Origin: a virus
Virus record (IMG/VR): IMGVR_UViG_3300029712_000001
Length of the DNA stretch: 64,000 nt
Reading direction: 5' to 3' (one strand)
Below are positions 1,752 to 59,974 of this stretch, one piece after another (the first letter of the stretch is position 1; every line of letters starts with the position of its first letter). The position numbers and the translations under genes were made by a program. The notes under the pieces were generated by a model. The model saw nothing but the letters and a program-made list of their open reading frames with translations. It did no database searches and had not been told where the DNA came from.

Positions 1752-1851
1752 GATTTATTATACGAAAATCATATTATTCATGTCTATAAATTAAAAGTTA
1801 TCTTTATCCCAAAATAAGACAATCATGAGAAGAAGATTTTTTAACAAAATA

Positions 1852-1868
1852 GGGGGGGGGGGGGGGGG
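1852..1868 (+). repeat. Homopolymeric G17 tract
   Basis: Counted directly: 9 G at 1852-1860 plus 8 G at 1861-1868. Confidence 0.95.
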
Positions 1869-1944
1869 TATTTACCTACTGATAATTTTATAGTTTTTGA
1901 TAAATCTGTATCAGATCCGGCTAATATAACAATAAGCGAAGACA

Positions 1945-2703
1945 GTGATTTTTTTAAATAGGTTGATTACAAGTGGCTTTTATAGAGTTCTTTGCAAGAG
2001 CGCTATGGGAGGAGGAGAGGTTTTTGTATGTAGATTAAAAGATAACGACAGTAATTTATATCTTGATGGCAGTCCGGCTGTTCTTACCGGACAAGAAGGT
2101 GATGTGATGGTCGTTTTCTTAGAATTTTGGTATAAATGGTATAAGGTGGATGATAATAAATTTCTTTATCATTTTGCTGATCATGATATTGACGGCACTT
2201 ACATCCATGTCCCGAAATCTCTTGTTGGAGCATATAAAGGATATGTATCTTTGAATAGATTATATAGCTGGAGTGATGTTACTCCTACGACTAACGTATC
2301 ATTATCTGATTTCAGAAGTTACGCAAAAGCACGTGGTACCGGATACCAGGTGATAGATTTCCAACAACATTGCGTGATTGCTATGATGTTGTATGCTAAA
2401 TACAAAACACGTAACCTGCAAGGCGTATTAGGACCCGGTGGCGCAACCTGTGATCCGGCTACAACAACGGGAAGCAGCAACGCAACCGGTGGTGCGGATA
2501 CCGAAAACGAAAGTTCAAAGTACGTTTGTGGCTTAGGACTTGAAGGCGTATTTGGTGGTATCTGTGAATTTGTTGAAGGTGTAGAAATAAATAACCGAGT
2601 TTGGAAAATAACCGATCCTGACGGTTCGATTCGCAACGTGAACGCCGGGACTGTCAGCGGTTGGATAAAAAAATATAGCAGCCGAAAATGGTCCGTTTTT
2701 TGA
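1945..2703 (+). CDS. Fibre-like protein, central fragment (252 codons)
   Basis: Long ORF with a Gly/Thr/Ser-rich stretch and GLGLEGVFGGICEFVEGVEINN, reminiscent of prophage tail-fibre C-terminal modules. The GTG start is doubtful. Confidence 0.6.
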   Translation: MIFLNRLITSGFYRVLCKSAMGGGEVFVCRLKDNDSNLYLDGSPAVLTGQEGDVMVVFLEFWYKWYKVDDNKFLYHFADHDIDGTYIHVPKSLVGAYKGYVSLNRLYSWSDVTPTTNVSLSDFRSYAKARGTGYQVIDFQQHCVIAMMLYAKYKTRNLQGVLGPGGATCDPATTTGSSNATGGADTENESSKYVCGLGLEGVFGGICEFVEGVEINNRVWKITDPDGSIRNVNAGTVSGWIKKYSSRKWSVF

Positions 2704-2704
2704 T

Positions 2705-2950
2705 GTGGTGCCTACAAGAGTTGGCGGTAACAATTTAAAATATTATTCAGATCGTTATTATCAGGCATCGGACAATTCCCTTGTTTTGGCTCGCTCCTAT
2801 TTTAATTCGAATGAGTATGGCGGCGTGGCGTATTCGGGTGCTGGTAAATATGCGTCGAGCCAGGATTTGACCTACGGTTCGCGTCTTGCTTTCCGTGGGA
2901 CCATATCCGAAGTAAGTCCGGAGCAGTTTAAAAAATTACCAGCATTATAA
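2705..2950 (+). CDS. Fibre-like protein, C-terminal fragment (81 codons)
   Basis: Continues the previous ORF in the +1 frame across the T6 run. Ends ...GSRLAFRGTISEV.... Confidence 0.5.
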   Translation: MVPTRVGGNNLKYYSDRYYQASDNSLVLARSYFNSNEYGGVAYSGAGKYASSQDLTYGSRLAFRGTISEVSPEQFKKLPAL

Positions 2951-3453: not shown

Positions 3454-4317
3454 ATATTAAAAAACAAAAGAATACTGCTATTTGATTTTGACGGGACGCT
3501 TATAGAAACCGCTTCTGGGAATACGTTCGCTACAGACTTGACAGATATAAGGATTAAGATGGATGTGGTGAATAAGGCTCTTGACCTCATGCAGGAGAAC
3601 GGTGTTAAGGTATTTGCTATCGTAAGCAATCAAGGAGGAGTAGAAGCTGGGTTTGTTTCTGGAGCTGATATTGAAGCTAAGATAGAATACGTACTGAGGT
3701 CCGTACATGATCTGGCGGTAAAGAGAGGCATAAGAGGCGTCCTATATGAAAAAAGGTTGTGTTATTCAAATGACGAACAAGATCCGATGAGGAAGCCTAA
3801 CACTGGCATGATTGATGATATTCTTATGAAGTGTAAAGACACGGTAATGCGTGGTATGAACTTTAGTCAACTTAAGGGATGTTCGTTGATGGTCGGGGAC
3901 GCCAGTGGTCTTCCAGGGCAGTTCTCTGATTCGGATAAGGTATGCGCTGAGAAGGCCGGCGTTGACTATATGGACGTTATTCAGTTTCTTGGTAAAGATC
4001 TTGATTTAGAGTATGTATTGTCCAAAGAACATACAAGTGAAGGAATAGTTATTCTCAACAACGATCATATATATATCCTTGAAAATCCATATGGTGTTGG
4101 TCTTAATATAAAAATCACTTTAAAAGATTTTTATAAGATTGAAACCGATGATGGAAAAACTGCAACCGTAGATGATGTGCTGAATATAAGGATTGATAAA
4201 GATCAGAATTTCAATTTATATAGTGATGTTATAAAAATAGAAACATTAAAAGACGGTAGTATCAAATATACAAGTTTGTATCACGAAAGTAAAGAAAACA
4301 GCGATAGTTTATCATAA
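3454..4317 (+). CDS. HAD-IIIA / polynucleotide-kinase-type 3'-phosphatase domain protein with C-terminal extension; start unresolved
   Basis: Motifs LFDFDGTLIETASGNTF (I), VSNQGG (II), RKPNTGM (III) and VGDASG (IV). Motif I lies upstream of the first canonical start (TTG 3538). The ATGATG at 3438 joins this frame only if the A6 run 3459-3464 is A5. Confidence 0.75.
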   Translation: MLKNKRILLFDFDGTLIETASGNTFATDLTDIRIKMDVVNKALDLMQENGVKVFAIVSNQGGVEAGFVSGADIEAKIEYVLRSVHDLAVKRGIRGVLYEKRLCYSNDEQDPMRKPNTGMIDDILMKCKDTVMRGMNFSQLKGCSLMVGDASGLPGQFSDSDKVCAEKAGVDYMDVIQFLGKDLDLEYVLSKEHTSEGIVILNNDHIYILENPYGVGLNIKITLKDFYKIETDDGKTATVDDVLNIRIDKDQNFNLYSDVIKIETLKDGSIKYTSLYHESKENSDSLS

Positions 4318-5567: not shown

Positions 5568-5752
5568 ATGTATTATTATAATCTATTGATTATAAGCCAC
5601 TTAAATAAACATATATCCTACATATTAATGTACGCGTATAATACCGCTCTTGTGTGTTTTATAACTTGCTGATAATCAGATAATAGAATCGAAATTAATA
5701 CAAGTTAACAAAAAAAAGATAGCATATATATTTGTAGTATTGATAAATGTAG

Positions 5753-6447: not shown

Positions 6448-7006
6448 CAAGGCACGGAGAGCGCCGTTAAGCTCTCCAAAGGTTTGTCGCGTACCTTAAC
6501 GCGCCTGTACGCCATTGTCAGTGGGTGCACGTCCCGCGTATGCTTTAGACTGAAGCTGACAAAAAGAGAGTTATTTTACATATTGGAGATAGATATACCG
6601 TTGCCCTTGCCGTTGGCAATTAAAGGGCTGGTATTACTGCATGAATCACCCGAATAGGCGTGATTCATGCTAGGTATGTGATTACAGTTTGGAAAACATG
6701 CCGTTGTACGAGGTTTATCTCCAGATCGAAACGTGTCTTACTTGCTTACACGAAAAAATAGAACAAGGCTGTAGATTAAATTACAGGGTACAAGCATGTA
6801 GCCTACCATGTAGGGACGTGCCGTATCAAAGCGCAAGGACACAATCGCCTTTATTTGTGGCTAAGTTGTGTAGCAGACGGAAAATATAATAACAACATAG
6901 TACGGGCCTGTACACAAGAACTACGTACTAATTACGGGCTGTTGGTTGTAGCATAAAATTCGTACAGGATAGGAATGCGCGTTCGGTTCGATTCCGGAGC
7001 AACCTC
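6448..7006 (+). ncRNA. Long hairpin-dense non-coding segment ending in a tRNA-like T-arm; class unknown
   Basis: No credible ORF. Stems 6456-6462/6471-6477, CATGAATCAC/GTGATTCATG near 6641-6670, and 6907-6913/6962-6968. GC is clearly above the flanks. Confidence 0.35.
6982..7006 (+). other. tRNA-like T-arm plus 3' acceptor strand (module 1)
   Basis: ttcGG-TTCGATT-CCgga, then gcaacct-c. Only a 5-6 bp partner (ggttg at 6944-6948) and 32 nt where a tRNA needs about 41. Confidence 0.5.
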
Positions 7007-7029
7007 TAAATTATAAACAATATAATAAC

Positions 7030-7200
7030 ATGGAAAAGAAAGAAATGATCAACGCTTTAACTGAAGCGTTCAATAAATCTAAAAACATCTGCGTAAAAAT
7101 AACATTGCGTAACTATATCGAGACGGTGGAAACACTCAGTGAAAATGAGTATAAAGAGGCGGAGGGTTTCTATATCGAAGCTCTTAACCGCTGGAGTTAA
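7030..7200 (+). CDS. Hypothetical small protein (56 aa), below the ORF-track cutoff
   Basis: ATG 7030 to TAA 7198-7200, translated by hand (MEKKEMINALTEAF...). Starts 24 nt after tRNA-like module 1. Confidence 0.5.
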   Translation: MEKKEMINALTEAFNKSKNICVKITLRNYIETVETLSENEYKEAEGFYIEALNRWS

Positions 7201-7223
7201 TCATAATTAAAGCATAAAGAAAA

Positions 7224-7430
7224 ATGGAAAGGAAATTTAAATCTCATATGGTAGACGTCCGCGGTCTGTCCAGGAAAGAAGCTAAAGAAAAGCGGAAAAG
7301 AGCGTATCGGGAATTTATGTTGTATCGTGATCTCAAAGAAGCGTATCATGCCGATACGGGAAAGGACAAATGCAAGCGTAAAGTTCATACATCACGAACA
7401 TACGTCAAGGAAAATATAAACAGTATTTAA
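7224..7430 (+). CDS. Hypothetical basic protein (68 aa)
   Basis: ATG ORF, Lys/Arg-rich, followed by a nested hairpin at 7433-7485. Confidence 0.55.
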   Translation: MERKFKSHMVDVRGLSRKEAKEKRKRAYREFMLYRDLKEAYHADTGKDKCKRKVHTSRTYVKENINSI

Positions 7431-7535
7431 ATAGGAGTAGGGTTTTTTCGAATATCGGAGCAGCCCTATTTTTGTATCCTACTCTTTCTATTTACGGGTA
7501 TGATATTCTGAGAGTGAACGGCGAATGTGGACAAT

Positions 7536-7675
7536 ATTGGTCTAAAACGAAACAAAAATAGGAGCGTTCGGATATAATGCCGGTATTTTGTCTATATCAT
7601 GTCGTTAAAATTGGTCTAAAACGAAACTTGAGGCGGTTTTCTGACCCAAAATAGGGTGTCGGATGCCGCCTTTTT
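7536..7675 (+). repeat. Tandem duplication of an about 70-nt unit
   Basis: ATTGGTCTAAAACGAAAC at 7536-7553 and 7610-7627. Both units also carry AAAATAGG..TCGGAT..GCCG. Confidence 0.8.
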
Positions 7676-7676
7676 C
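7631..7676 (+). terminator. Intrinsic terminator closing the tandem-repeat unit
   Basis: AGGCGG (7631-7636) pairs with CCGCCT (7666-7671) around an inner GACCC/GGGT stem, then TTTTT. Confidence 0.6.
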
Positions 7677-7801
7677 GTCTCTATGGATTGAAAATTAGGC
7701 TTATTGTATTTTTCTTAAAAATGAGGTATGCTTGATTATCAATTAGTTATGTTTTATAATACCCGTATTTTCGGACATACTTATTGTATTTTTTTTATTT
7801 T

Positions 7802-7969
7802 ATGTGGTGGTTTTTATTAGTAGCTGACTTTTATTTTCTGTCGGTTGGTATTCGCTCTATGTTGGAGTACGGACCGGATCAGTATAATATTGTAATGGTC
7901 TTTTGCTTTTCTTTATTGGCTTTGATTATAGGTTTAAATATCTATTTTGATAGGAGAAGCAGACGGTAG
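7802..7969 (+). CDS. Possible small two-TM membrane protein (55 aa)
   Basis: ATG within the listed 7784 ORF. Two hydrophobic helices and an RRSRR tail. Isolated inside a long non-coding region. Confidence 0.4.
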   Translation: MWWFLLVADFYFLSVGIRSMLEYGPDQYNIVMVFCFSLLALIIGLNIYFDRRSRR

Positions 7970-8160
7970 GGCGTGGGCTGAAGGCTCTCTATTCTCTCTA
8001 TGGAATTATATTATCTCCAAACACCCCACACTTCATGCCAGAGTATAAGCTTGTAGCGCTCTCCGTATGCCTGTGGCGAGGCTGATAGCGCAGGTTCTAT
8101 GCGGAAAGCCGGAGGATTAGCGGGAGTTGGAGAGGGGGAGAGGGAGGGCACTCCCCACCA

Positions 8161-8313
8161 ACAAAATTCAATAGATAAGCGTTTTAAAACAACATTATGT
8201 AGGGTTTTCCCACAAAATTAAGGATTACAGTGCTTTAAAACAGCAAAATGTGAGTTTATTCTACAAAATTCAATAGGTTGAGAGTTGAAAACTATATTCT
8301 ATAGATTGGTGGT
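8161..8313. repeat. Three imperfect tandem 51-nt repeats
   Basis: Units start with ACAAAATT at 8161, 8212 and 8263. Each has TT(T)AAAAC about 25 nt in. Confidence 0.8.
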
Positions 8314-8338
8314 AATCGGAATGTTTAACAATTAAAAT

Positions 8339-8608
8339 ATGGATGGTATGAACGTATATGATTTTGCACCCGATTTAGATTTGAGTAAGGAGGTAGAAGG
8401 TTCTATTTTTGGGGTGAAAGGAATAGAAGGCAGTGATGGTATAGTATATGCTAAGGTAGTTAGCTGTGTAGACGTTAAGGATTACAGTTGTGATAGGTGT
8501 ATTTTTTATGATTGTTATAAGGATAAATGTTTATTATCGCGTAGTGATAGTTGTATAGATGGAGATTGGATTTGTAGGTACGAACAGGCTGCCATAGAGG
8601 GGGAGTAG
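8339..8608 (+). CDS. Small Cys-rich protein, family 1 (paralogs at 9799 and 38218)
   Basis: FAPDLDLSKEVEGSIF...CDRCIFYDC...C pattern shared with the two other ORFs. Confidence 0.75.
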   Translation: MDGMNVYDFAPDLDLSKEVEGSIFGVKGIEGSDGIVYAKVVSCVDVKDYSCDRCIFYDCYKDKCLLSRSDSCIDGDWICRYEQAAIEGE

Positions 8609-29083: not shown

Positions 29084-29410
29084 ATGGAAATAGATGATAT
29101 TGAAAAAGCAGCAAAGCATTATCAAGAAAAAGATCATGATATCTGGACAGATAAAGGCATGGCAACAGAATTACAAAAAGCCTTCAAAGCTGGTGCAAGC
29201 TGGCGCATAGGCAGCGTGTGGCACGATGCAAGAGAAAAGCCAGACAAAGGGAAGTTGCTCATCGCGGAGGATATTGACAGTGCTTATGATTTGGTCTATT
29301 CAACCAAGAGCAAGCCATGGGAAGAACTTTCGGAAGAGAATCATTATATGCGCTGGGCATGCATCGAAGACTTGCTCCCATGCAAAGAAGAAGGGGGGGG
29401 GGATGAATAA
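29084..29410 (+). CDS. Hypothetical protein (108 aa) ending in the G10 tract
   Basis: Ends ...PCKEEGGGDE, with the three Gly codons read from G10. Confidence 0.65.
   Translation: MEIDDIEKAAKHYQEKDHDIWTDKGMATELQKAFKAGASWRIGSVWHDAREKPDKGKLLIAEDIDSAYDLVYSTKSKPWEELSEENHYMRWACIEDLLPCKEEGGGDE
29393..29402 (+). repeat. Homopolymeric G10 tract at a gene junction
   Basis: Counted directly: 8 G at 29393-29400 plus 2 G at 29401-29402. ATG of the next gene is at 29403. Confidence 0.95.
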
Positions 29411-29671: not shown

Positions 29672-29749
29672 ATGAAGAGAGAAAATATTGAAAAAGCTGC
29701 AAAGATTTATCAAGAAAAAGACATGATATCTGGGCAGGTAAAGGCTTAA
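29672..29749 (+). pseudogene. Degenerate duplicate of the 5' end of 29084..29410
   Basis: MKRENIEKAAKIYQEKD matches IEKAAKHYQEKD. A 1-nt deletion relative to copy 1 (aaagacatgat versus aaagatcatgat) causes an early stop. Confidence 0.6.
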
Positions 29750-29768
29750 GAAGAAAATTTGAAAGGTT

Positions 29769-30977: not shown

Positions 30978-31448
30978 ATGAATCGCTGGTTTGAAATTAC
31001 GGTAAAAGCCGAGATTGATAATATCGAGAACGGCAAAAAAAAGAAAGTAACTGAAAAGTATTTGGTGGATGCCTTGTCTTATACAGAGGCAGAATCAAGA
31101 TCGTTGGAGATCTTTAAGGATTTGTACAATTCTTTCGAGGTTGTAAAAATTAACCCTATTAAAGTGTCAGAAATCTTTTTCAACGGAGAAGCTGAGTACT
31201 GGTATAAGTGCAAGGTGAATTACATTACACTGAATGAAAAGAAAGGTAAAGAAAAGAAAACGCCATGCTATATGTATGTCCAAGCCGGCAATCCTAAAGA
31301 CGCCGAAGCTGTGTTGACTAAAGGTATGCAGGGTACGTTGGGAGACTGGAATTGCGAGTCTATTGCTGAAACAAAGATCATTGAAGTGTTTAAATACGAT
31401 CTGCAAAAAGGTGTAGAAAAATTGGGAGAAAAGAAAACTGATGAGTGA
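30978..31448 (+). CDS. Hypothetical protein (156 aa)
   Basis: ATG ORF. Resembles a Bacteroidota/phage DUF family from memory only. Confidence 0.7.
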   Translation: MNRWFEITVKAEIDNIENGKKKKVTEKYLVDALSYTEAESRSLEIFKDLYNSFEVVKINPIKVSEIFFNGEAEYWYKCKVNYITLNEKKGKEKKTPCYMYVQAGNPKDAEAVLTKGMQGTLGDWNCESIAETKIIEVFKYDLQKGVEKLGEKKTDE

Positions 31449-39894: not shown

Positions 39895-41595
39895 ATGACA
39901 ACAATCATGTACGTGTCAGCTATATTAGCTGTAGTGATTATTTTGACAATCATCGGAGTCTTATCAAGGTATCGTAGATGTAAGCCTAATCAGGTCTTGG
40001 TCGTTTATGGTAAGACAGGTGGGGAAAAGAAGTCGGCGAAATTATATCATGGTGGAGCGGCATTTGTCTTACCTATTATTCAAAGCTATGATGTTTTGTC
40101 AATGGAGCCTATGCAAATAGATTGCAAGCTTACCGGTGCTTTGTCATCTCAGAATATTAGAGTAGATGTACCTACAACCATTACAGTAGCTATCAGTACA
40201 AATCTCGAAATCATGCAAAATGCGGCAGAAAGACTTTTGGGGATGGATACCGAATCTACTGAAAATCTTATTACGGACATCGTTTACGGTCAGATGCGTT
40301 TGATTATTGCTGAAATGACAATCGAAAAACTTAATTCTGACAGGGATGAGTTTTTGGATAAGGCAAGAAAGAACATTGATAACGAGCTTAACAAGTTAGG
40401 TCTTTACCTCCTGAACATCAACATCAGTGACATCAGAGACGAAGCCGGTTATATTATGAACCTTGGTAAGGAGGCTGAAAGTAGGGCTCTGAACGAGGCA
40501 CAGGCTAATATCGAAGAACAGGAGAAGCTGGGTGCTATTAAGATTGCTGTACAGCAGAAGGAGAAAGAAACGGCTGTGGCTAATACCAAAAAAGAGCAAG
40601 AGATTCAAATTGCTTGTACTGAAAAAGAAAAGGAAACGATAGTAGCTGAAACGAAGAAAGAAAAAGAAATAGCTTTAGCTTTAACCGATAAAGAGAAACA
40701 GATCGGTGTAGCTCAAGCAGATAGAGACAGGGCTGCGGTTATCGCAAAAACTTTAACCGACAAGGAATCGGCGATCGTAAGATCTAAGGCAGAACTTGAA
40801 GTAAATAAAGCCGAGGCTGAAAGAATGGAAGAAGTCGGAAAGAATAAGGCTGAAGCTGACAAGGAAGCAGCTATAGCAATACAAGACTCTGAAGCTCAGA
40901 TTAAGAAGGCTGAGGCTGAGAAAAATGCGTCTATAGGATACAACAATGCCCAGAAGGAGGTTGCTGTATCAGTATCAGAACTACAGATCATCAAAGCTCA
41001 ATCAGAGAAGAAGGCCGGAGAAGAAAAAGTTAAATCGGAAGCGGCTGTAAAAACAGCAAAAGAGCTTGCCGACAAAGAAGTGGAAGAAGCTAAGGCTAAG
41101 AAAGTTCAGGCTGCGCTTAAGGCTGAAAAGATTGTGCCGGCTGAAACCCAGAAGGAAGAGGCTATCTTGCAAGCTGATGCCGAGGCCGAGAAGATCAAAC
41201 GCCGGGCTGAGGCTGAGGCAGCAGCACATTTGGCAAAAGCTGAGGCGGAGGCAAAAGCTATTCAGATGAAGCTGGAGGCAGAAGCCGAAGGTAAGAAAAA
41301 GTCGTTAATGGCAGAAGCCGACGGATTTAAGGCCATGGTGGAAGCAGCAGAATCCAATCCTCAGATCGCCATCCAATACAAGATGGTTAATCAGTGGAAA
41401 GAAATTGCCGGAGAACAGGTTAAGGCGTTCGAGCACATCAATCTCGGAAATATCACGGTATTTGACGGCGGTCAGAACAGTACCGGTAATTTCCTTAACA
41501 ATGTTGTCAAGACCGTCGCTCCGGCATTGGGAGTCATTGATCAGCTTCCGATTGCAGATACTTTAAAGAAGCTAAAAGGAGATGACAAAAAATAA
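39895..41595 (+). CDS. Flotillin / SPFH (band 7) family protein, YqiK/FloT-like (566 aa)
   Basis: N-terminal TM, then CKPNQVLVVYG...GGAAFVLPIIQ...IRVDVP...AAERLLG...GQMRLIIAEMTIEKLNSDRDEF...ISDIRDEAGY. A long Ala/Glu/Lys coiled coil follows. Confidence 0.9.
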   Translation: MTTIMYVSAILAVVIILTIIGVLSRYRRCKPNQVLVVYGKTGGEKKSAKLYHGGAAFVLPIIQSYDVLSMEPMQIDCKLTGALSSQNIRVDVPTTITVAISTNLEIMQNAAERLLGMDTESTENLITDIVYGQMRLIIAEMTIEKLNSDRDEFLDKARKNIDNELNKLGLYLLNINISDIRDEAGYIMNLGKEAESRALNEAQANIEEQEKLGAIKIAVQQKEKETAVANTKKEQEIQIACTEKEKETIVAETKKEKEIALALTDKEKQIGVAQADRDRAAVIAKTLTDKESAIVRSKAELEVNKAEAERMEEVGKNKAEADKEAAIAIQDSEAQIKKAEAEKNASIGYNNAQKEVAVSVSELQIIKAQSEKKAGEEKVKSEAAVKTAKELADKEVEEAKAKKVQAALKAEKIVPAETQKEEAILQADAEAEKIKRRAEAEAAAHLAKAEAEAKAIQMKLEAEAEGKKKSLMAEADGFKAMVEAAESNPQIAIQYKMVNQWKEIAGEQVKAFEHINLGNITVFDGGQNSTGNFLNNVVKTVAPALGVIDQLPIADTLKKLKGDDKK

Positions 41596-41734: not shown

Positions 41735-41819
41735 AACCAGAAGAACTGACCAAGCATTATGATCAGTGTTATAACCCCAAATAGTATTAAACCAATATAA
41801 TTCTATTATAAAAGTTTAA

Positions 41820-42085
41820 TACATCTCTTTAAGAGATCGGGTTATTAGCCTAAGCCTTGAAACAAAGGCTACGTTATTTAAGAATAGATAGTTACCTACG
41901 GATGTTTACCCAAGTCTGTAGCTCTAAGGTAAGTGATTAAACAGTTCTGGTATTCAGGAACAGTGTTGCTTATTCAAAACCTTAAATAACATTGGCGATG
42001 GGTACTTACAGGAGAAATCCTGACTTATCCCTAACGGGATTTACATCTACCAAGGAGACCGAAAGGTCTCCGAGGGGATGTATTA
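41820..42085 (+). ncRNA. Structured RNA candidate with several GNRA-capped helices; class unknown
   Basis: Hairpins at 41823-41837, 41853-41870 (loop GAAACA), 41896-41921, 42009-42022 (GAAA), 42027-42040 and 42054-42071 (7 bp + GAAA). The last is enclosed by 42042-42047/42077-42082. No ORF present. Confidence 0.45.
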
Positions 42086-42128: not shown

Positions 42129-42476
42129 ATGGAATTGATTTTGAAACAGAAGAAGAGGAGGATGAAGAGTATGACTGATGAGGAATTTGTATTGGATAAT
42201 AAGAAAAAGGTTGTTGCAAGAAAAAGAATATCTTATTTAAACAAAGGTGATAAAGTATGGATCGTGTCTTCCGACGGGTATCTGCTACACACGGACGTAG
42301 TTAGAGCCGAACGCGGATGGTCTTATGTGGAGATAGACGGGATTCTGTATTGGAAGCGAGGATTAGATGGCAAGCATCGTAATCGTAATAACTACATGCA
42401 GTTTGCCATGACACCAGAAGACGGTAAGAAGTATGTCGTATATTACCCGGAAGGATTTAAAGACAATGACTTATGA
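42129..42476 (+). CDS. Hypothetical protein (115 aa)
   Basis: ATG ORF. ATGA overlap with the next gene. Confidence 0.7.
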   Translation: MELILKQKKRRMKSMTDEEFVLDNKKKVVARKRISYLNKGDKVWIVSSDGYLLHTDVVRAERGWSYVEIDGILYWKRGLDGKHRNRNNYMQFAMTPEDGKKYVVYYPEGFKDNDL

Positions 42477-43492
42477 TGGTCCCGGAAACACATTTGCTAT
42501 ATAAGGAGTTTAATGGTGTGAAACGTCTTGCCATATCTTATTCCCAGATAGATACGTTTCTTACTTGTCCAATGAAATGGTATAAGACTTACGTAGAGGG
42601 TAAAAGGTCTACAGAAAAACAAGAAGCTACATCTTATGGTACGGTTATCCATAAAACACTGGAATACTTCTTTAAGAACGGAAGACAGCCTTCTGGTAAA
42701 GACCTTGGAGAAGCGATAAGTTACTATTCCTATCAAGAAGACATACCTTGGCAATCACCGGAAAATATGATGATAGCCATGAAACAATCTGGGGAGCTTC
42801 TTGCTTGGATTGTGGATCTGTTCAAAAAAGACGGCAATAGGTTTATGATAGCTGATAGTGATCTTAATCCCTGTGAGAAACTTATCAGACACGGCGCTAT
42901 AATTGGAGTCGAAGAAGATTTTGTGCTGCCGTATCGTCTTCCTAAGCCTGTTGATATAAATGGTGACGTTCATACACATGTGTACATAGTAGGATCGGTA
43001 GATCTTCATCTGGCTATAAAGAGCAAGAACGTAGTTCACCATTATGTCATAGATTGGAAATCAGGTAATAAGGTTTTTGATTCTAAGAAGTTGGAAACGA
43101 ATTTACAGCATCCTATATATTCGTTTTACATCTATAGAAAATATGGTGGGGTTCTACCAGATATGAACATCTATTTCTTTACCAGAACCAGGCAGTACCA
43201 AAAGGTTAAGATAGATGAAGAGCGTAAAACAAAATCTATAGAAATGCTAAATGACACTTTGTCTAAAATGTATGATTTTGAAGATAATAGTGTAAAAACA
43301 TTTCAAGCGTACATCCAGGGAGCAGAAGAAGCCAGGTATAGCAAGCGGCGCGCCACCCTAAGCCAGCCTGTTTCGCAAAACAAGCTACCCTGCCCGTCGG
43401 CGCTGTGTTATTATTGTGACTTTGGATTACATAACAAAAACGAATGCCCTTTCTCTTCAGATTGGGATCCGTCTAAAAAGATAAAACGATGA
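42473..43492 (+). CDS. Cas4-like PD-(D/E)XK exonuclease with Cys cluster (339 aa)
   Basis: LTCPMKWY (N-terminal Cys), GTVIHKTLEYF, GSVDLHL, VIDWKSG and LQHPIYSFYIY. C-terminal CPSALCYYC......C. Confidence 0.7.
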   Translation: MMVPETHLLYKEFNGVKRLAISYSQIDTFLTCPMKWYKTYVEGKRSTEKQEATSYGTVIHKTLEYFFKNGRQPSGKDLGEAISYYSYQEDIPWQSPENMMIAMKQSGELLAWIVDLFKKDGNRFMIADSDLNPCEKLIRHGAIIGVEEDFVLPYRLPKPVDINGDVHTHVYIVGSVDLHLAIKSKNVVHHYVIDWKSGNKVFDSKKLETNLQHPIYSFYIYRKYGGVLPDMNIYFFTRTRQYQKVKIDEERKTKSIEMLNDTLSKMYDFEDNSVKTFQAYIQGAEEARYSKRRATLSQPVSQNKLPCPSALCYYCDFGLHNKNECPFSSDWDPSKKIKR

Positions 43493-51908: not shown

Positions 51909-51955
51909 ACAACAATCCCCAACCATACAATAGGCGTACGGTTGGGGATTGTTGT
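51909..51955. terminator. Bidirectional terminator at the convergence point
   Basis: 16-bp perfect stem ACAACAATCCCCAACC (51909-51924) / GGTTGGGGATTGTTGT (51940-51955). Confidence 0.8.
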
Positions 51956-52635
51956 CATATCGTAAAATTAAGTGTTTTTTCTAATATCAGATATTCAGTA
52001 TGAACTTTACTTCCGCCATCATCTATCAAGTCCAAACTAATATAAGCTGTATATGATACATGATGATCACCAGGAGCAAGACGTTTCATTTCTGATAAGA
52101 ACATAGAATTTAAACCTTGGCCAGACCATGATTCTGGATATGGCAAAGGTGTAAAGTCGGCGTCTGTACATCTTACAACCCAAGTAAGATTAGGATCTGC
52201 CCTAACTATTCTATCATGAGGTCCATCAATTACAAGATCTGGCATCTTATATTGGTAACTATCATAATTAAGGACAATAGGATCACCAAAGTTTACACTG
52301 TATATAGCAGCAGGTGGAGTAAAGCTTGTTATTAAAAGGGTTCTATTAATCCTATTGGTTGTTCTTAGCGTAAACTCATCAGGTGCTATCACACTTACTC
52401 CAAATCCATAATAAGGAGAGGTTGTTAAAGCAATAGCAAGAACCACCGAATCCTGTTCAAGCAATTCCTCTGTCGTATCAACCTGACTATCGATCTCTTG
52501 CCTATCTTCCATTGGAACACCGCCTTGGACACTTATGGAATCCAGCCGTTCTTTTTTAGACAGAAAGATAAATTGCCCGCCCTGTGGAATGGTGCCTACT
52601 TTCTTTCCTTCTACGATTACCCCCCCCCTATACAA
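51955..52635 (-). CDS. Fibre / receptor-binding-like protein C, long ORF (226 codons from TTG); natural ATG is out of frame at 52691
   Basis: Beta-rich ORF directly after gene B. The MRRRF-encoding ATG at 52691 reads ...CIGGG then stops, and joins this ORF only with G10 instead of G9. Confidence 0.7.
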   Translation of the reverse strand: MYRGGVIVEGKKVGTIPQGGQFIFLSKKERLDSISVQGGVPMEDRQEIDSQVDTTEELLEQDSVVLAIALTTSPYYGFGVSVIAPDEFTLRTTNRINRTLLITSFTPPAAIYSVNFGDPIVLNYDSYQYKMPDLVIDGPHDRIVRADPNLTWVVRCTDADFTPLPYPESWSGQGLNSMFLSEMKRLAPGDHHVSYTAYISLDLIDDGGSKVHTEYLILEKTLNFTI

Positions 52636-52691
52636 TTGCTAACTATCTTATACTCATATAGTTTAGCATTATTTTCAAATCTTCTTCTCAT
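52617..52691 (-). other. 24-codon MRRRF leader ORF ending just after the G9 tract
   Basis: atgagaagaagatttgaaaat...tgtata-G9-taa. The first 15 nt are identical to the leader at 1825. Confidence 0.8.
52620..52628 (-). repeat. Homopolymeric G9 tract (C9 on the plus strand)
   Basis: Counted directly: c52620 plus 8 c at 52621-52628. Confidence 0.95.
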
Positions 52692-52695
52692 AATT

Positions 52696-53313
52696 TCATA
52701 AAATTAATTCGGTAAAGGGGCGGACATAACGTGGATTACTCCTTGTACTTGTATCCAAATGATCCCCTTGGATGTTTATATCATAATACCACGAATAGGT
52801 AGATTGTGTAGATTGAGTGGATGTCCACATTTTATTACTCATTATCGTACCTCCTACCATTAAAAGGCATTCGTTTATTTCATTAGCATACAATGATATC
52901 AAAAAAAACTCTCCGGCGCCACCTACATATCCATTTTGACCATTTTTAAATAAATAGCTATTAGCTTTATTAAAAGCGTAATTTTCATTACTGGTATCAT
53001 ATTCAAGATACGCATTCTGATTTTCACGCCCCCAATAATCCTTTTTAACGGTCTCCATATAAGAACTATTTTGTGCAAATACATTGTCTACTCTTCCATC
53101 CTTACCCCAACGAAATGTGCCAATATATTCGGTGGCTATAACAAAACACACTTTATCTACAAGAGCTATTCCATTGTATAGATCATTGGAATATCCTTTA
53201 TTAGACCAATTTTCTTTTGTATATAATCCTCCATCTACATGTTGGATGTATATGCCTTTATTGATTATAAGCGAGGGATTTACCCCCATCCCTGTTTGAA
53301 ATCTTCGTCTCAT
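52696..53313 (-). CDS. Fibre / receptor-binding-like protein B with DUF1566-like C-terminus (205 aa from ATG 53313)
   Basis: Starts MRRRFQTGMGV. C-terminal MWTSTQS...SWYYDI..G......YVRPF. The listed N-terminal extension (to 53400) overlaps a terminator hairpin. Confidence 0.75.
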   Translation of the reverse strand: MRRRFQTGMGVNPSLIINKGIYIQHVDGGLYTKENWSNKGYSNDLYNGIALVDKVCFVIATEYIGTFRWGKDGRVDNVFAQNSSYMETVKKDYWGRENQNAYLEYDTSNENYAFNKANSYLFKNGQNGYVGGAGEFFLISLYANEINECLLMVGGTIMSNKMWTSTQSTQSTYSWYYDINIQGDHLDTSTRSNPRYVRPFTELIL

Positions 53314-53527: not shown

Positions 53528-56500
53528 CTATTTGTAACTAACATCATCGTCTCCTTCCGAATCAGGAGTGGCGCCGATGAAGAACATCATTGACTTGTTG
53601 TTCGTCTGCTGCCACCAATTATAGGCGCGCGCTACGTCTTCCGGCGTCTTGATATTATACCATTGTTTGATAAACGTCTGTTTGGCGAGTTGCCTAAATA
53701 ACTTAAACTCTCCTTTGTATGTACCGGACGTCACCTTATCAAGTGAGTAGTTCCTAAGATCGGTAAGATCCTTAAGTTTCCGTCCCATAACAAACGGGTC
53801 GTTAATGATATCTACCACATTAAGCTCCATAATAAACGGCATCTGTGAAGCTATTTCATTTATGGTTCTGAATCCGACGTAGGATCCGAATTGAGTAAGC
53901 CAACTTTCCTCGTTTTCATCATCATCACGCCATCCGGCAAGAAGCATAGATACGGCTTGCATGATAAGGAACGTGCCGGCATAGACACTGAGACGTTTTA
54001 TATTGGTTTTCTCTACCTCATTCATATTATCTTTATTTTCGTTCCAGGCATCTATGATGTTTTTCATACCAGACTCGGAAGCTAAGCTAAATGTTTTGGC
54101 TATCATATTCTTTAACGTAATTGACAGTCCTTCCTCTTCTTGCATTGTTTGGAAATTGAAGCCACGTCTTTTCCACAGGCGTTGAGCTGCCAGCACCAGC
54201 CAGCCTCGGTGGGCGGTCATGAACCTGGCTATCCAGTTGCGCGATGCGGCAGTTCGGTTTTCTTCATTCAAAGATCCGTTACATATCTGCGACAAGCTAC
54301 GGACTTGATTCCTGGTTATAGCCATCTGGGTTTCAACTTCCTCAACAGTAACACCCGATCCCGGCTTTACAACCACCTTTCCATCCACGACGTCTACCAT
54401 ACTCCATAAAGTGCGATCTTTTAATGCATCCCATTCTCTTTTTATGGTACTCTGTTCTTTATTGCGTTCTTTTTCCATCTTGAAATCTTGGAACGTATAG
54501 AACCGGCCTTTGTAATAACGAACATTGTCCATAGTAGCAATCATAACCTGCGGATCAAGAGGGTAGTTCAGGATTTCCATAAAAGCATACATAGGCGAAC
54601 GCATTAAGGTCCTGGCCACTCTATTATATCCGGCACCATACATACGATTTCGGATATTGAATATCCCCATTCTCTCACCTATGACATATAATTTGCTTTT
54701 CCTATCTATGTCTCCGGTTTCTGCTATACAAGATGGAGCAAGGCGTGAAAATTCAGCCGATGCGTATTTAAGGGAGTCTTTGCTTATATACTGTCCTACG
54801 GCAGATTCCATGATGAGGTTGATATGACCTGTCAGGGCGCCGGTAGCTGCCACAAACGGGGACAGCGCCAGGTTCATGACCGACATAAATCTTTCAACGG
54901 CCATCATTATCCTGGTAAGGTCTACTGTGTATCCACCGATGTTTACCGTCAGTTTTTTGGTGTTCATTCTAATGCCATAATAATGGTCATTGAAGAAGTC
55001 CCTGAACATCTGATATGCTTGGGTTGCTTCAGCTTTCTTCCCGCCTTCAAATTGCTTATTCAGTAACATCTGCTCCAGTCCTTGGGCAAGCTCTATAGAT
55101 TTCTGCTTTTCGTTGTATAATGATGATTGCATCATAAGCATCGAATAAGAGTAACCAAAATCATGAGATACGTCATCTTGGTTCTCTAATTCATATATGT
55201 AGTATTTAGGTATGGACCGAACCCTATCTTCCGGATCATATACCTCACCCTGGCGTGTTTTACCATACAGGGAGTCATCTACGCGGTCAAGACATAAGTC
55301 GGATACGAAGTTCCTGACCGTACTTTTAAGGCTGATACCTAACCCTTCTATACGTTCTATATCTTGTTTGGATATCTGTGGAATAGCATACAGGTTCGGG
55401 CTCTGCTCTTTGTATAGATCAAGGGATTGTCTTTTTATTTCCTTGAGTTTTTGAATCATATTCCACTGCTCTACGTTTTTAGTAGCGACCTCATTACCAT
55501 CAGCATCATATTTGATACCAAAGTCATTGAGATACGATTCATCACGATACAGGCTTTTCTTAGGCATGCGATGACCATACCCATGATCTTTTACATAATC
55601 AGGATTACGACCGCTATTTTCGGCTTCAGATTCAGCCACCCATGCCCTTGCAGGGTCGAAAGACAGGTACGATATGTCCATGCCATAATCTTGGGTGGAT
55701 GTACCGTTTTGTACGTCCTTAACCATCTGCGCCACATCTATCTCACCTCGACCAATTTTGTCGATCATAGCCGCATATCCGGTAGGCGCCATGCGTTTAT
55801 AATACGAAAAGACCTGGCTCCTGGCAAATTCATTAACAATAGCATTAGCTTCTTCTATGCCCGCTTTTATGTCAGCTTCTATACCCTCTTCTCTTGTATT
55901 ATTTAAAAATAAGCTGGCCATCTTAGTATTAACAGCATTCCTGAAATCTCTACCGTCTAATTCTTTGCTTATACCGAGCTTTTCTGACAGGTAGTTGGTT
56001 TCAGATACGGTAAACAGATATCGGTTATCAGCAGCCTTAAACAGCTTATCCCTTAAAGCCTGAATCCTTTTTGCTTTCTTTGCCGTAGTATGACGTTGCA
56101 CAAACTTCCATTCCACTTCCTTGGAGTCAGCAAGAGCATTTAAATAAGACTGATTTACTTCGTTTTCAGCCTTACTGCTTTTAGTAAGGTACTTATCAAT
56201 ATCTTCAAGACCCACCATCTTAGCATAATCTATTAAGATAGCGTAATCAGCTTCAATAGCTTCAGATGCGGCCCTAAAAGCATCTCTTTCAGATGAGGTA
56301 AATGTCGCTTCGTTAATTTCTCCGATATCAGCCACATCTCGGTTGTTTCCGATTATTTCCTTGATAATGGCCTTATTTTTTTCTATATCTTTCACAATCG
56401 AATCCACGTCAGTCGCATCTCTATCACTTGTCGTAGAACTAATGATATCATGCGCCATTTTAAGATACGAAGCCTTGTTATTTGATTCGGTACGTGCCGA

Positions 56501-59500
56501 CTGTTCCGATTCTACATCATTCCAAAACCGATCATTAAATGACAGGTGACCTCCCAACATAAGCGTCTTCAGCGCAGCTTCTCCTCCAGACTCGCTCTGA
56601 ATCGTTCTTAATTTTTGCAAAAACGATTCTGATACGGCATTAGTGGCATTATTTGATTCTTTTCTCCAAACTTCATTTATGGCTTGTATTTCTTTGGCCA
56701 TCTTAAGTTGGTCGCCGGTTTTTTCCACTCTCCTGGTTCCTACATATATGTATTCTGAAGCTGCTTCCTTACGTTGTTTACGAAGCAGTCCTTCTTCTTC
56801 GTAATTGCTGCTTTTAAAATAGGCAACCTCATCAAAATTACCACCGCTATCAATAAAAGGCTGCCTCAATATCCGTTTTTGCCGGGATAGGGCATTAAGG
56901 TATTCTTTGGTTGTTTGAGAAACCGGATACCCTAATTCTTCTTCAGCCTTTTTGTATATGGATTCCATTCTTGTGGCATAACTTTCGCTAAATTCCAGTT
57001 CCGAATTTTCAGCATCCCACTTTTCCATCTGCTCTGTATAGATCTTTTCCTGCTCGATGGTAAAAATATCGGTATTAACCCTATCAGACGATGGTTTGAA
57101 TTTAGCGTTTTCAGTAACCGTATTTCCATCCTTGTCAACTACTTCTCTTTTAAATACGTAATTACGGTTATTGTCAACCACATCACCAATTTCTTGTTCT
57201 GATATCTCTATGTTCATGGCAGTCGCAAACGCTCGCATCTGCGCCAGCTTCTTATTACGATCGTATTTAGCCATATCAAGAGCACTACGAAGGTAATTAG
57301 AAGTTTTGCCGTCTACTTTCTGAAGCAGTTTTTCAAATTCAGATTTGTTAAAACCATGTTTTTTAGCATATGCCAGGAAGTCGGATATGGCGGGCTGGGC
57401 ATTCACCATCGCATTGTAATTGTCTTTGGCAATCATAGCTCCAAGAGCGTTATTGAACGGACTGGAAGAATGCTCTAATATACCAAACCACCTACTTATC
57501 CAAGAAACATCGTGTTGAACCTTGTCGAAAAATTCTTTTACTCTCTTTACCTTATCTGCCGGCACATGAAGTTCGTTCATTAACTTATCAAGCAACGTAC
57601 TTTCATCAAGGTCTTGTACTGATTTAATATCAGACTGAATACCATTGATGTCGGCAATGACGGTATTGATCCTATTTGTATAATCCTGCTTTTCACGTTC
57701 ATCAAATTCGGTACTTCTGTTACGGATATATCCTCGAAGATCGTTCATGATCGGAAGAACCTGATTGTTGATAATATCTACGTTCTTTCGATCATTGGTA
57801 TTGAAATGAAGCTTACCGTCTTTGGTATCACCATGAAGGATAGTATTTACTACGTTGCTTAAGTATCTAACCTGAGCTTCGGCTGTAGAGATCATGCTGT
57901 TCATGGCAGCCGCCATCTCATTCTTGTCTATTTCGGTCTCTACCTTATTTATCTTATCTTCTATAGTCTTAAGCTGAGCAAGGGTCATAGACGTAGTTAC
58001 AGCCCTATCAGAGCTTATCTGACGTAAGTCTCTTAATGTTTTCCTTAATGCCAGGATCTTAGACTCAAGAAACTTGTTCTTGTTCATAGAAGAAAGGGAG
58101 TATAATGTAAAGTCATTATCCTTTAACAGAGAGGTGTCAAATCCTTTATCTATGTCAGTAATGGCAAGATCACGAATGTTTTTAATAACGTTATTCAAAT
58201 CTTGTCTTTGGGTTGATAAAGCTGATTTAAGCCAGCTTACGATTCCAGAGAAAAGCTGCCGGACGCGCCCCAGGAAGGAGGTGGGCTCTACCGGCGCCTG
58301 TGCTGTGCCGGTCTGCATCTCCCTGGCGAGGATCTTTCCAAGAATTTCTCTCCTAACAGCATTATCAAGCTCAGCTCCTTCATATACCTTACCGTATGTA
58401 TTATAATACTGACCTGCATACTGGTTCCACTCTTCCGTACCTTCTACATCTTGCAGAACAGCCTCAACAGCATTCTGATCTCTGTATGCCTCTACAAGGA
58501 AGTGGGCTGTTTCTTCTACTAAATCAGATAAAGTAGCATCTTCACCAACTGCTATTACGTTATTAGCAATATCCGCCAATGCCTTAGCAGAAGGTTCATG
58601 CCCGTATTTGGTTTGGTACTTCTCTATATAGTCGGTCATACCTATGACACTAACGCCAAGAGTTTTCAGTATCTCGACAATAGAATTTCGTTGGTCACGT
58701 TCCTGCCTGCTATAATCTGATACGATCTTAGCTTTAGTATCAGCATAAAGATCGTTGTCCTCTAATATGAATGAAACTACAAGCGCATCAAAATGATCGT
58801 ACTTGGCGTCCAATTCATTGTATCTTCCAGACTTAAGATCGTTCTTTATCTGTTCCCTACTAACCCTTTCCGTTCCTCCGGTGGCGAGTCTCATAGTTAC
58901 CTTACTGTTATCCAACGAGCTTATGGTTATCATACCTTGGTCGTTCATGGAAACATCGGAACCAAAATGATTACGGAGCTCGGTGTATGATAAGGCTGAA
59001 TTGAAAAGTCTAATTTGTCCTGTATGACCTTCTCCTGTAAGATAATAGCTTCTTGTTTCAGGATCGAATATCTTAGATCCTGACAAAAGACCTTTCTTTA
59101 TAAGGTAGTTAATTATACCACCTTTTGTTGATAAAGAAGTAGAAGCAGAAGCGGTCATGACCGGTATAAAAGATTTGGGGTTGTTAAGAACATACTTTCC
59201 AGCTTTGTAAGTAATGTCTGCCACGCCATCCACGGCAGATTCTTGAACGGTGCCTGATAAGAACCCTATTCTAATATCATTCCCGCCAGAGCGAAGAGCT
59301 TCTCCGTAATCTTCAAATAATTGGCTACGATCGTTCATGAAAAACAAACGAGGCTCTCCGGTCTGATACGTTACACCCACAGGATTAGAATCTGTTTCTG
59401 GTAGCTCTTCTGGGCTAAATATCTTAAGACCGTCTTTTATAACCATATAATTAACACCCTTATCCTGTACCATAGATACGGGAGTGAAGTCTGAAGATAT

Positions 59501-59974
59501 GGTATCTTGTAGATACTGCCCGGCGTCTATTCCAGGTCCTTCCGGTACGGAAATACTTGACGGGACCATAGCATCCACCAACATAATATTATCACCCAGA
59601 TTTTGGCTGTAGAATCCAAAGCCCGATTCTTGGATTTCATAAGGTGCATCTGATTTTGACACAAGAACAGGGTTACTCATCTTAGAAGCCTTATCCAGCA
59701 CCCTTTCCCTATAGGCTTCCGGAATAAGATCGATGTTGGATTTCACCTTATTGTAGGCCTGTTTATTAACAGGTACATTCCTTCTCCAGTCGCCAAAAGC
59801 CTTTAAGAACTTATTAGAAAATACGGTTTTAAAAACAGTAGTAGCCCGTTCCCTGTTCTCCATAAGAGGAATAGATGCTATTTTATCAAACAACATAGAC
59901 CTGTCCCCTGATCTGGTAGAGACAGAAACAACTTTCTTTTTATTATCTCTTTTAATAATACACGTTGATACCAT
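53528..59974 (-). CDS. Giant 2148-aa virion-associated protein (tape-measure / ejection / polyvalent-type; function unresolved)
   Basis: Uninterrupted 6447-nt ORF with its own promoter and flanking terminators. Mostly helical and charged. C-terminal hydrophobic segments (SPFVAATGALTGHINLIM, VYAGTFLIMQAVSMLLAGW). Upstream of the fibre-like genes. Confidence 0.9.
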   Translation of the reverse strand: MVSTCIIKRDNKKKVVSVSTRSGDRSMLFDKIASIPLMENRERATTVFKTVFSNKFLKAFGDWRRNVPVNKQAYNKVKSNIDLIPEAYRERVLDKASKMSNPVLVSKSDAPYEIQESGFGFYSQNLGDNIMLVDAMVPSSISVPEGPGIDAGQYLQDTISSDFTPVSMVQDKGVNYMVIKDGLKIFSPEELPETDSNPVGVTYQTGEPRLFFMNDRSQLFEDYGEALRSGGNDIRIGFLSGTVQESAVDGVADITYKAGKYVLNNPKSFIPVMTASASTSLSTKGGIINYLIKKGLLSGSKIFDPETRSYYLTGEGHTGQIRLFNSALSYTELRNHFGSDVSMNDQGMITISSLDNSKVTMRLATGGTERVSREQIKNDLKSGRYNELDAKYDHFDALVVSFILEDNDLYADTKAKIVSDYSRQERDQRNSIVEILKTLGVSVIGMTDYIEKYQTKYGHEPSAKALADIANNVIAVGEDATLSDLVEETAHFLVEAYRDQNAVEAVLQDVEGTEEWNQYAGQYYNTYGKVYEGAELDNAVRREILGKILAREMQTGTAQAPVEPTSFLGRVRQLFSGIVSWLKSALSTQRQDLNNVIKNIRDLAITDIDKGFDTSLLKDNDFTLYSLSSMNKNKFLESKILALRKTLRDLRQISSDRAVTTSMTLAQLKTIEDKINKVETEIDKNEMAAAMNSMISTAEAQVRYLSNVVNTILHGDTKDGKLHFNTNDRKNVDIINNQVLPIMNDLRGYIRNRSTEFDEREKQDYTNRINTVIADINGIQSDIKSVQDLDESTLLDKLMNELHVPADKVKRVKEFFDKVQHDVSWISRWFGILEHSSSPFNNALGAMIAKDNYNAMVNAQPAISDFLAYAKKHGFNKSEFEKLLQKVDGKTSNYLRSALDMAKYDRNKKLAQMRAFATAMNIEISEQEIGDVVDNNRNYVFKREVVDKDGNTVTENAKFKPSSDRVNTDIFTIEQEKIYTEQMEKWDAENSELEFSESYATRMESIYKKAEEELGYPVSQTTKEYLNALSRQKRILRQPFIDSGGNFDEVAYFKSSNYEEEGLLRKQRKEAASEYIYVGTRRVEKTGDQLKMAKEIQAINEVWRKESNNATNAVSESFLQKLRTIQSESGGEAALKTLMLGGHLSFNDRFWNDVESEQSARTESNNKASYLKMAHDIISSTTSDRDATDVDSIVKDIEKNKAIIKEIIGNNRDVADIGEINEATFTSSERDAFRAASEAIEADYAILIDYAKMVGLEDIDKYLTKSSKAENEVNQSYLNALADSKEVEWKFVQRHTTAKKAKRIQALRDKLFKAADNRYLFTVSETNYLSEKLGISKELDGRDFRNAVNTKMASLFLNNTREEGIEADIKAGIEEANAIVNEFARSQVFSYYKRMAPTGYAAMIDKIGRGEIDVAQMVKDVQNGTSTQDYGMDISYLSFDPARAWVAESEAENSGRNPDYVKDHGYGHRMPKKSLYRDESYLNDFGIKYDADGNEVATKNVEQWNMIQKLKEIKRQSLDLYKEQSPNLYAIPQISKQDIERIEGLGISLKSTVRNFVSDLCLDRVDDSLYGKTRQGEVYDPEDRVRSIPKYYIYELENQDDVSHDFGYSYSMLMMQSSLYNEKQKSIELAQGLEQMLLNKQFEGGKKAEATQAYQMFRDFFNDHYYGIRMNTKKLTVNIGGYTVDLTRIMMAVERFMSVMNLALSPFVAATGALTGHINLIMESAVGQYISKDSLKYASAEFSRLAPSCIAETGDIDRKSKLYVIGERMGIFNIRNRMYGAGYNRVARTLMRSPMYAFMEILNYPLDPQVMIATMDNVRYYKGRFYTFQDFKMEKERNKEQSTIKREWDALKDRTLWSMVDVVDGKVVVKPGSGVTVEEVETQMAITRNQVRSLSQICNGSLNEENRTAASRNWIARFMTAHRGWLVLAAQRLWKRRGFNFQTMQEEEGLSITLKNMIAKTFSLASESGMKNIIDAWNENKDNMNEVEKTNIKRLSVYAGTFLIMQAVSMLLAGWRDDDENEESWLTQFGSYVGFRTINEIASQMPFIMELNVVDIINDPFVMGRKLKDLTDLRNYSLDKVTSGTYKGEFKLFRQLAKQTFIKQWYNIKTPEDVARAYNWWQQTNNKSMMFFIGATPDSEGDDDVSYK

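Follow-up and report, generated by a model that had tools for sequence, protein, structure and literature searches.

A variable poly-G tract as a probable ON/OFF switch in a 245-residue protein gene of a human-gut phage

Gene C, on the minus strand of the 64,000-nucleotide stretch of viral DNA analyzed here (IMG/VR record IMGVR_UViG_3300029712_000001; the window), is probably a slipped-strand ON/OFF locus in a real phage gene that encodes a protein of 245 aa. The window is part of a human-gut phage of roughly 150 kb. We infer that slipped-strand mispairing during replication of the phage DNA alters the length of a G run near the beginning of this gene. A run of G10 (or G7 or G13) would be read through to give the full protein C (ON). 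The G9 run found in the window would bring translation to a stop after 24 residues, deprive the N-terminal domain of its first two predicted beta-strands, and leave a null or severely truncated product (OFF). An MRRR[FY] leader followed by a G tract also precedes gene A and other cassette-like genes next to a giant structural protein. Because the leader and tract are located before several genes, phage populations may carry heritable, probably reversible, ON/OFF combinations of accessory virion or adhesin-like proteins. The coordinates of the relevant features are presented in Table 1.

Table 1. Coordinates of gene C, its neighbors, gene A, and the homopolymer runs discussed in the text
Feature	Position in window	Strand	Remarks
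Gene C leader ORF	52617..52691	-	ATG; 24 codons, MRRRFENNAKLYEYKIVSNCIGGG; TAA 52619-52617
G9 homopolymer tract of gene C	52620..52628	-	candidate switch; TAA directly 3'
Proposed locked form of gene C tract			GGAGGTGGCG; counterpart of the 9-nt version
TTG upstream of gene C tract	52633..52635	-	shares the frame of the body only with G9/G12
Gene C body	51955..52619	-	predicted all-beta; 245 aa with leader
Inverted repeat, 12 bp	51913..51951		CAATCCCCAACC...GGTTGGGGATTG; just past gene C stop, between convergent genes
Gene B	52696..53313	-	205 aa, MRRRFQTGMGVNPS...; same operon, directly upstream of gene C
Interrupted tract of gene B	53283..53292	-	GGGATGGGGG; 10 nt, in frame
2148-aa virion structural protein	53528..59974	-	phrog_37651, E=2e-76; heads the B-C gene pair
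Gene A	1825..2950	+	MRRRFFNKI-G17 and tail-protein-like body; phrog_5302, E=1.7e-27
G17 tract of gene A	1852..1868	+	relatives G6 to G11, mode G8
G10 run	29393..29402	+	in ORF 29084-29410
Private +1 A/T runs	1949-1955 (T7), 2667-2673 (A7), 3459-3464 (A6), 6753-6758 (A6), 7220-7224 (A5)		

The ATG of gene C (52691-52689) opens ATGAGAAGAAGATTT, translating to the leader peptide, and is located 4 nt beyond the TGA of gene B (52698-52696). The first-pass annotation had described this start and the termination of the leader by a TAA after G9, and the coordinates of both were confirmed. It had also predicted that G10, G7, or G13 would join the leader to the body, and this was borne out by an in silico series of tract lengths. 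With G7, G10, and G13 a single ORF of 244, 245, and 246 aa, respectively, was obtained that ends at position 51955, and with G8, G9, G11, and G12 a stop was encountered within 24-44 codons. In the full-length form codons 22-25 (Gly-Gly-Gly and the first base of Val) are an uninterrupted G run. A change in tract length toggles the gene between the full-length product of 245 aa and a truncated one, and the natural products were found to be 245 aa versus 226, 221, and 185 aa. The 226-codon ORF in the ORF track (51955-52635; product 'MYRGGV...') does begin at a TTG as annotated, but this TTG precedes the tract by 4 nt and is not inside it. Since the G8 and G11 states have no in-frame TTG, gene callers report products of 185 aa for them.

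The operon on the minus strand runs from the 2148-aa structural protein to gene B and then to gene C, and the same order was found in relatives L001, L069, and L071. Gene B is the annotated coding sequence WOZ57324.1 in phage csAssE-Sib. The inverted repeat beyond the stop of gene C, which is partly kept in csAssE-Sib, is possibly a terminator; it was not flagged in a simple terminator scan of the window. A T8 run in gene B (52901-52908, minus strand) is also variable among relatives, with 7 nt in two, 8 nt in 19, and 9 nt in one, and gene B of L071 is split into ORFs of 103 and 116 aa.

A search with the G10 product of gene C returned 231 relatives. Among the best 120 homologue clusters from this search, 95 are 245 aa in length and start with MRRR[FY], and 12 are 221-227 aa in length and begin with MYRGG... 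or later, at the TTG or at a downstream start. Judged from their sequences, these shorter clusters are the OFF alleles as gene callers see them. The window's own 226-aa product is absent from the public collection, in which other 226-aa forms are present. One homologue cluster alone contains 2,677 members. The dominance of 245-aa homologues in the protein database upholds the earlier proposal that G9 is the out-of-frame state of a real gene that starts at MRRRF.

Conservation of protein C is highest over residues 1-23. The leader is conserved as protein, with synonymous changes, down to about 35% identity, and the synonymous codon differences between lineages (AAT/AAC, TGT/TGC, and AGA/CGT) indicate that it is translated in the MRRR frame. 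Distant relatives (35-56% identity) share an N-terminal module of some 60 aa, MRRRxxxxxxYxYxIxSNCxGGxVxVDGxxVGTI...GGVP, and have different C-termini; the YxYxIxSNCxGG-xVxVDG portion is present twice inside P0145. The AF2 model of protein C (mean pLDDT of 75) consists entirely of strands, and strands 9-17 and 24-27 flank the turn encoded by the tract. By this model and the conserved module, the leader and body belong to one predicted domain. Together with the conservation of the leader, this speaks against the alternative raised in the first-pass annotation, in which a protein is made from the TTG whatever the length of the tract.

The earlier description of gene C as fibre-like found no backing in Pfam, PHROG, or Foldseek. 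Protein C had no PHROG match, nor did gene B, and no Pfam match to protein C was obtained at E up to 1. A Foldseek search of the model against the PDB gave no match with E below 0.009, and in the PDB and BFVD its own family was the sole match. A beta-sandwich of the PEGA or CarboxypepD_reg type was considered for the N-terminal module from a likeness by eye and was rejected for want of a Pfam or fold match. Residues 178-230 weakly matched Ig-like repeats found in surface proteins from Bacteroidota.

The natural variation of the tract was determined in 29 assemblies with exact flanks (24 from IMG/VR and five metagenome contigs). The ON states were G10 in 11/29 assemblies and the interrupted 10-mers G5AG4, G6AG3, G9A, and G7AGG in 4/29 together. 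The OFF states were G9 (10/29), G8AGG (2/29), G8 (1/29), and G12 (1/29, in a contig with a coverage of 1.1). Nine contigs whose 500 nt of flank are free of mismatches nonetheless differ in the tract, which is G10, G9, G12, or G6AG3. When up to one mismatch per 500 nt was allowed, the lengths G8, G9, G10, and G12 were all represented. For the OFF allele P0167 (226 aa, at least 23 contigs), 10/10 independent assemblies, produced by different assemblers, have G9. This length is therefore reproducible rather than random noise, and its constancy suggests that switching does not proceed very rapidly. Control runs of A or T of 5-8 nt in the same contigs, measured by flank-anchored run-length counts because a whole-alignment listing of indels was too noisy, were mostly invariant, including A8 at 5710 (12/12), A8 at 31035 (6/6), and T7 at 56376 (12/12). 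The polymorphism of the tract and the steadiness of the A/T controls identify the gene C tract as a true hotspot where length varies heritably and G9 is a common natural state. The OFF alleles keep the body of gene C intact (226 aa). Alleles of both gene A and gene C are carried by four contigs, and exactly one of the two genes is ON in 4/4 of these (p about 0.07 by our own estimate, not significant). Broader-flank scans pairing the A and C states added one locus each.

It is unlikely that the true tract in the window is G10, that the G9 is a miscall by the sequencer or assembler, and that gene C is simply ON. The nearest flank neighbors of the window do carry G10, and the lone G12 is from the contig with minimal coverage. 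Stutter in amplification or sequencing most often removes one unit, and the OFF alleles of gene C are mostly of this kind (G9), which counts against the switch. The window also has homopolymer lengths of its own: five A/T runs (Table 1) and the G17 of gene A were found in none of 3-27 relatives. Three of the private +1 runs break otherwise conserved genes, namely, gene A twice and a PNK3P/HAD phosphatase (ORF 3538-4317) once, where A6 at 3459 severs the ATG and the N-terminal DFDGT motif. With such calls in the window, its own G9 and G17 lengths are not fully trustworthy. However, all of these anomalies are insertions confined to 1.85-7.2 kb, in a cluster that looks like either a local error of sequencing or assembly or a peculiarity of the lineage. 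No private homopolymer anomaly was found at 48-57 kb, where the G9 is a change of -1 and the adjoining ORF of 6.4 kb is intact. The G9 of the exact-flank assemblies and of the P0167 strain also argues against a miscall, and the polymorphism at the locus holds even if the window itself was miscalled. Two of the private +1 homopolymers are located in a portion of approximately 2 kb (about 6450-8530) that has no ORF of at least 90 aa on either strand and in which neither a tRNA nor an Rfam family was detected.

Long G runs are rare in this DNA. The window is 37.7% G+C and has only three G/C runs of at least 6 nt (the G17, G10, and G9 in Table 1), none of which is 6-8 nt in length. In the long ORFs GGG accounts for 13% of the glycine codons, which gives a probability of about 0.002 for three in succession. 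Uninterrupted runs of G9-G11 were nevertheless found at this site in homologues with 56% (L069/L070, G10), 40% (L071, G10), and 32% identity (L068, MRRRYQNNDKLYEYQIVSNCI-G9-TGGTAA, one G short of ON), in one homologue of the N-terminal module only (L073, GA-G9-T, in frame), and in one paralogue. The last is in L072, where one copy is interrupted (G3TG5) and a second divergent gene, MRRRF...YTYTILSDFN, has G11, one G over ON. This retention of 9-11 pure G's while the neighboring third positions diverged suggests that the homopolymer is maintained. The commonest protein form is IGGEV (G7AGG), a stabilized interrupted tract, and the many lineages with interrupted tracts indicate that mutability is not universally kept.

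The second MRRRF gene of L072 (a contig of Logan SRR33454295) runs on the minus strand from 2284, reads MRRRFYNSVEEYTYTILSDFN-G11, is OFF by +1, and diverges from the C homologue with the interrupted tract. On the other side of that C homologue, one gene further, is an OrfB_IS605/TnpB-like gene. The G10 run of the window falls within the Gly-rich tail at the C-terminal end of ORF 29084-29410. It ends one base short of 29403, where the ATG of the following ORF begins, and G9 there would fuse both ORFs (...CKEEGGGMNKRLRN...). Eight relatives have an interrupted sequence at this site (GAGGGAGGGGGTGATA or GAGGAGGGGAGGGTGATA), and the pure G10 may therefore be recent. A short ORF at 29672-29750 (plus strand; MKRENIEKAAKIYQEKDMISGQVKA*) resembles a degenerate second copy of the beginning of ORF 29084-29410 (...IEKAAKHYQEKDHDIWTDKG...).

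The leader and tract are not confined to gene C. Gene A (1825) has an identical copy of the 15-nt start of gene C, and gene B (53313) has a copy with a single mismatch; with up to two mismatches there were five matches in the window compared with 0.58 expected. The annotation's observation that genes A and C have this start and the ATA-Gn junction in common was thus correct. In L069, L071, and L068 two or three consecutive MRRR[FY] genes with unrelated bodies follow the giant structural protein. The interrupted tract of gene B is G5AG4 in L071, and in a few relatives G6 (OFF) or G8 takes the place of G5. At the position of gene C, csAssE-Sib has a different cassette without a tract (MRRRFENIKTVAG...).

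In 29 IMG/VR contigs the tract of gene A was G8 in 15, G10 in five, G7 in four, G9 in three, G6 in one, and G11 in one. The gene is in frame in 4/29 of these contigs, so that about 85% of assemblies have it OFF. When the tract was reset to G9, an ORF of 371 aa was restored in most contigs long enough for the gene, and the tract is thus the sole lesion of gene A in those relatives. Both genes of the window had been annotated as one G short of ON. This is accurate for gene C; gene A would be read through its tract with one more G but is then broken by two further frameshifts, the T7 run (T6 in 27/27 relatives) and the A7 run (A6 in 14/14). Forms of gene A of 399 aa were considered as alternative-frame N-termini and rejected, since they are in-frame upstream extensions. 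The last ~70 residues of gene A (window 2700-2950) are strongly divergent at scattered positions between the close relatives L035 and L047, whose C-termini read ...SYFNSNEYGGVAYSGAGKY... versus ...SYSGSDTSSGVAYAYASRN... ahead of a conserved GSRLAFRG. This pattern resembles that of a DGR target, an assignment that was rejected because no second copy of 2601-2960 was found within the window.

We suggest, tentatively and with some doubt, that the MRRR[FY] leader and poly-G tract constitute a portable, selectively maintained switch module placed before several non-homologous adhesin or receptor-binding cassettes, which would permit an abundant human-gut phage to present 2^n combinations of surface proteins. 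The cassettes meant are gene A, the array of B and C that follows the giant structural protein, and the paralogues in other phage lineages. If true, the module would be the viral counterpart of the bacterial 'phasome', matched to phase-variable host surfaces.

A non-adaptive origin of the length variation, with an error-prone run in a dispensable gene and neutral or mildly deleterious OFF alleles that drift, is quite unlikely. It would accommodate the lineages that interrupt the run yet keep the frame (G7AGG, G6AG3, G5AG4, and G9A), the single strain with G9 in every sample, and the high proportion of OFF alleles of gene A; the homopolymer runs of coliphages are also depleted in infection genes such as those for tail fibres. 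It is opposed by the uninterrupted runs at the same codons down to the most distant homologue, despite the low share of GGG, and by the presence of the same leader and tract on several different genes. The full-length downstream ORFs of the OFF alleles imply recurrent return to ON, which also argues against drift. It is very improbable that the full protein is made from G9 by RNA-polymerase slippage or ribosomal frameshifting with the tract length tuning dosage. Long homopolymers are known RNA-polymerase slippage sites, and OFF-length tracts are common even though the body ORF has not decayed. However, the best-documented cases of transcriptional slippage involve A/T runs, unlike this G run, and a programmed frameshift site should be out of frame throughout rather than in frame (G10 or an interrupted 10-mer) in most relatives.

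A slipped-strand ON/OFF locus is therefore retained as the best explanation for gene C. A virion or adhesin role for its product is suggested by the position after the 2148-aa structural protein and by the modular build. Gene C itself is without a match, and gene A matches the tail-protein family phrog_5302. Considering the location of gene C behind a virion protein, an N-terminal module that is conserved while the C-termini vary, and the tail-protein match of gene A, the switch would most likely serve to vary which accessory adhesin or receptor-binding proteins are displayed. If the tracts switch in this manner, a widespread human-gut phage lineage with thousands of database members diversifies its virion surface by homopolymer slippage. 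Such slippage is so far known from experiment only in Campylobacter phages and, for other classes of genes, in T-even phages. Switching would also explain the 'truncated' genes of 221-226 aa and the split genes in metagenomic annotations, where pipelines mis-call the TTG start, and the signature MRRR[FY]...SNC-I-Gn could be used to find further switches.

The region 51.8-53.6 kb is 96% identical to csAssE-Sib (OR575929, 151 kb) over 56% of the query. No relative was found in 185,579 GTDB genomes, and the window shows no enrichment of TAnnTTTG, the -7 promoter motif of Bacteroidota (66 occurrences versus 69 expected, with no match to the two-box version). Two weak hints of the host were obtained. 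The body of gene A has homologues in Phocaeicola and Rikenellaceae, and the proteins that contain the Ig-like repeats matched by protein C bear T9SS sorting domains and SprB repeats, which we take to be of Bacteroidota type. Elsewhere in the window there is a full-length HEARO RNA (41771-42009, plus strand; RF02033, 112 bits) flanked by a SPFH/flotillin-like protein (39895-41595) and a PD-(D/E)XK nuclease (42473-43492). HEARO RNAs are normally linked to IscB/HNH ORFs; no IscB-like ORF was found in these flanks.

Our search of the literature returned no paper describing such tracts in gut phages and none on phage csAssE-Sib. The nearest precedent is provided by the Campylobacter Fletchervirus phages, in which hypermutable poly-G runs (7-11 G) are reported in receptor-binding-protein genes (Sorensen et al., Cell Rep 2021, 35:109214). 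According to papers that cite this study, these phages also have intragenic G runs in virion or host-recognition genes with several tracts per genome, and changes in length shift the reading frame to yield phenotypically mixed phage populations. Unlike the Fletchervirus phages, the phage described here is a human-gut phage of roughly 150 kb whose proteins are unrelated and without a family match. Its receptor-binding role is putative, and the tract is at a fixed position in the conserved MRRR[FY] leader and N-terminal module of several cassette genes. No homology to Fletchervirus was detected, and the sole match among 50,697 phage records was csAssE-Sib.

Homopolymer runs within phage ORFs that undergo reversible frameshifts at raised rates have also been described as contingency loci in T2 and T4 (bioRxiv 10.1101/2025.10.21.683753; Gomez, Barrick and Waters). 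Those loci are likewise intragenic but not homologous to the genes described here. They are mostly A runs of 6-9 nt, for example in agt, with per-read frequencies near 1e-3 and a depletion in tail-fibre genes (bioRxiv 10.1101/2025.10.21.683753), in contrast to the present G runs of 9-17 nt, which are fixed at differing lengths in about half of the natural assemblies. Variable poly-G tracts have also been mentioned in passing for Bordetella phage BPP-1 and for a baseplate gene of PB1-like phages; these are again G runs in phage genes but are not homologous. The organization of gene C also resembles that of the bacterial poly-G contingency loci of Campylobacter, Haemophilus, and Neisseria, where the tract is within the first few dozen codons, the ON and OFF states are set by the reading frame, the ORF remains intact in the OFF state, and several loci allow combinatorial states. 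Unlike those loci, the tracts described here are carried by a virus.
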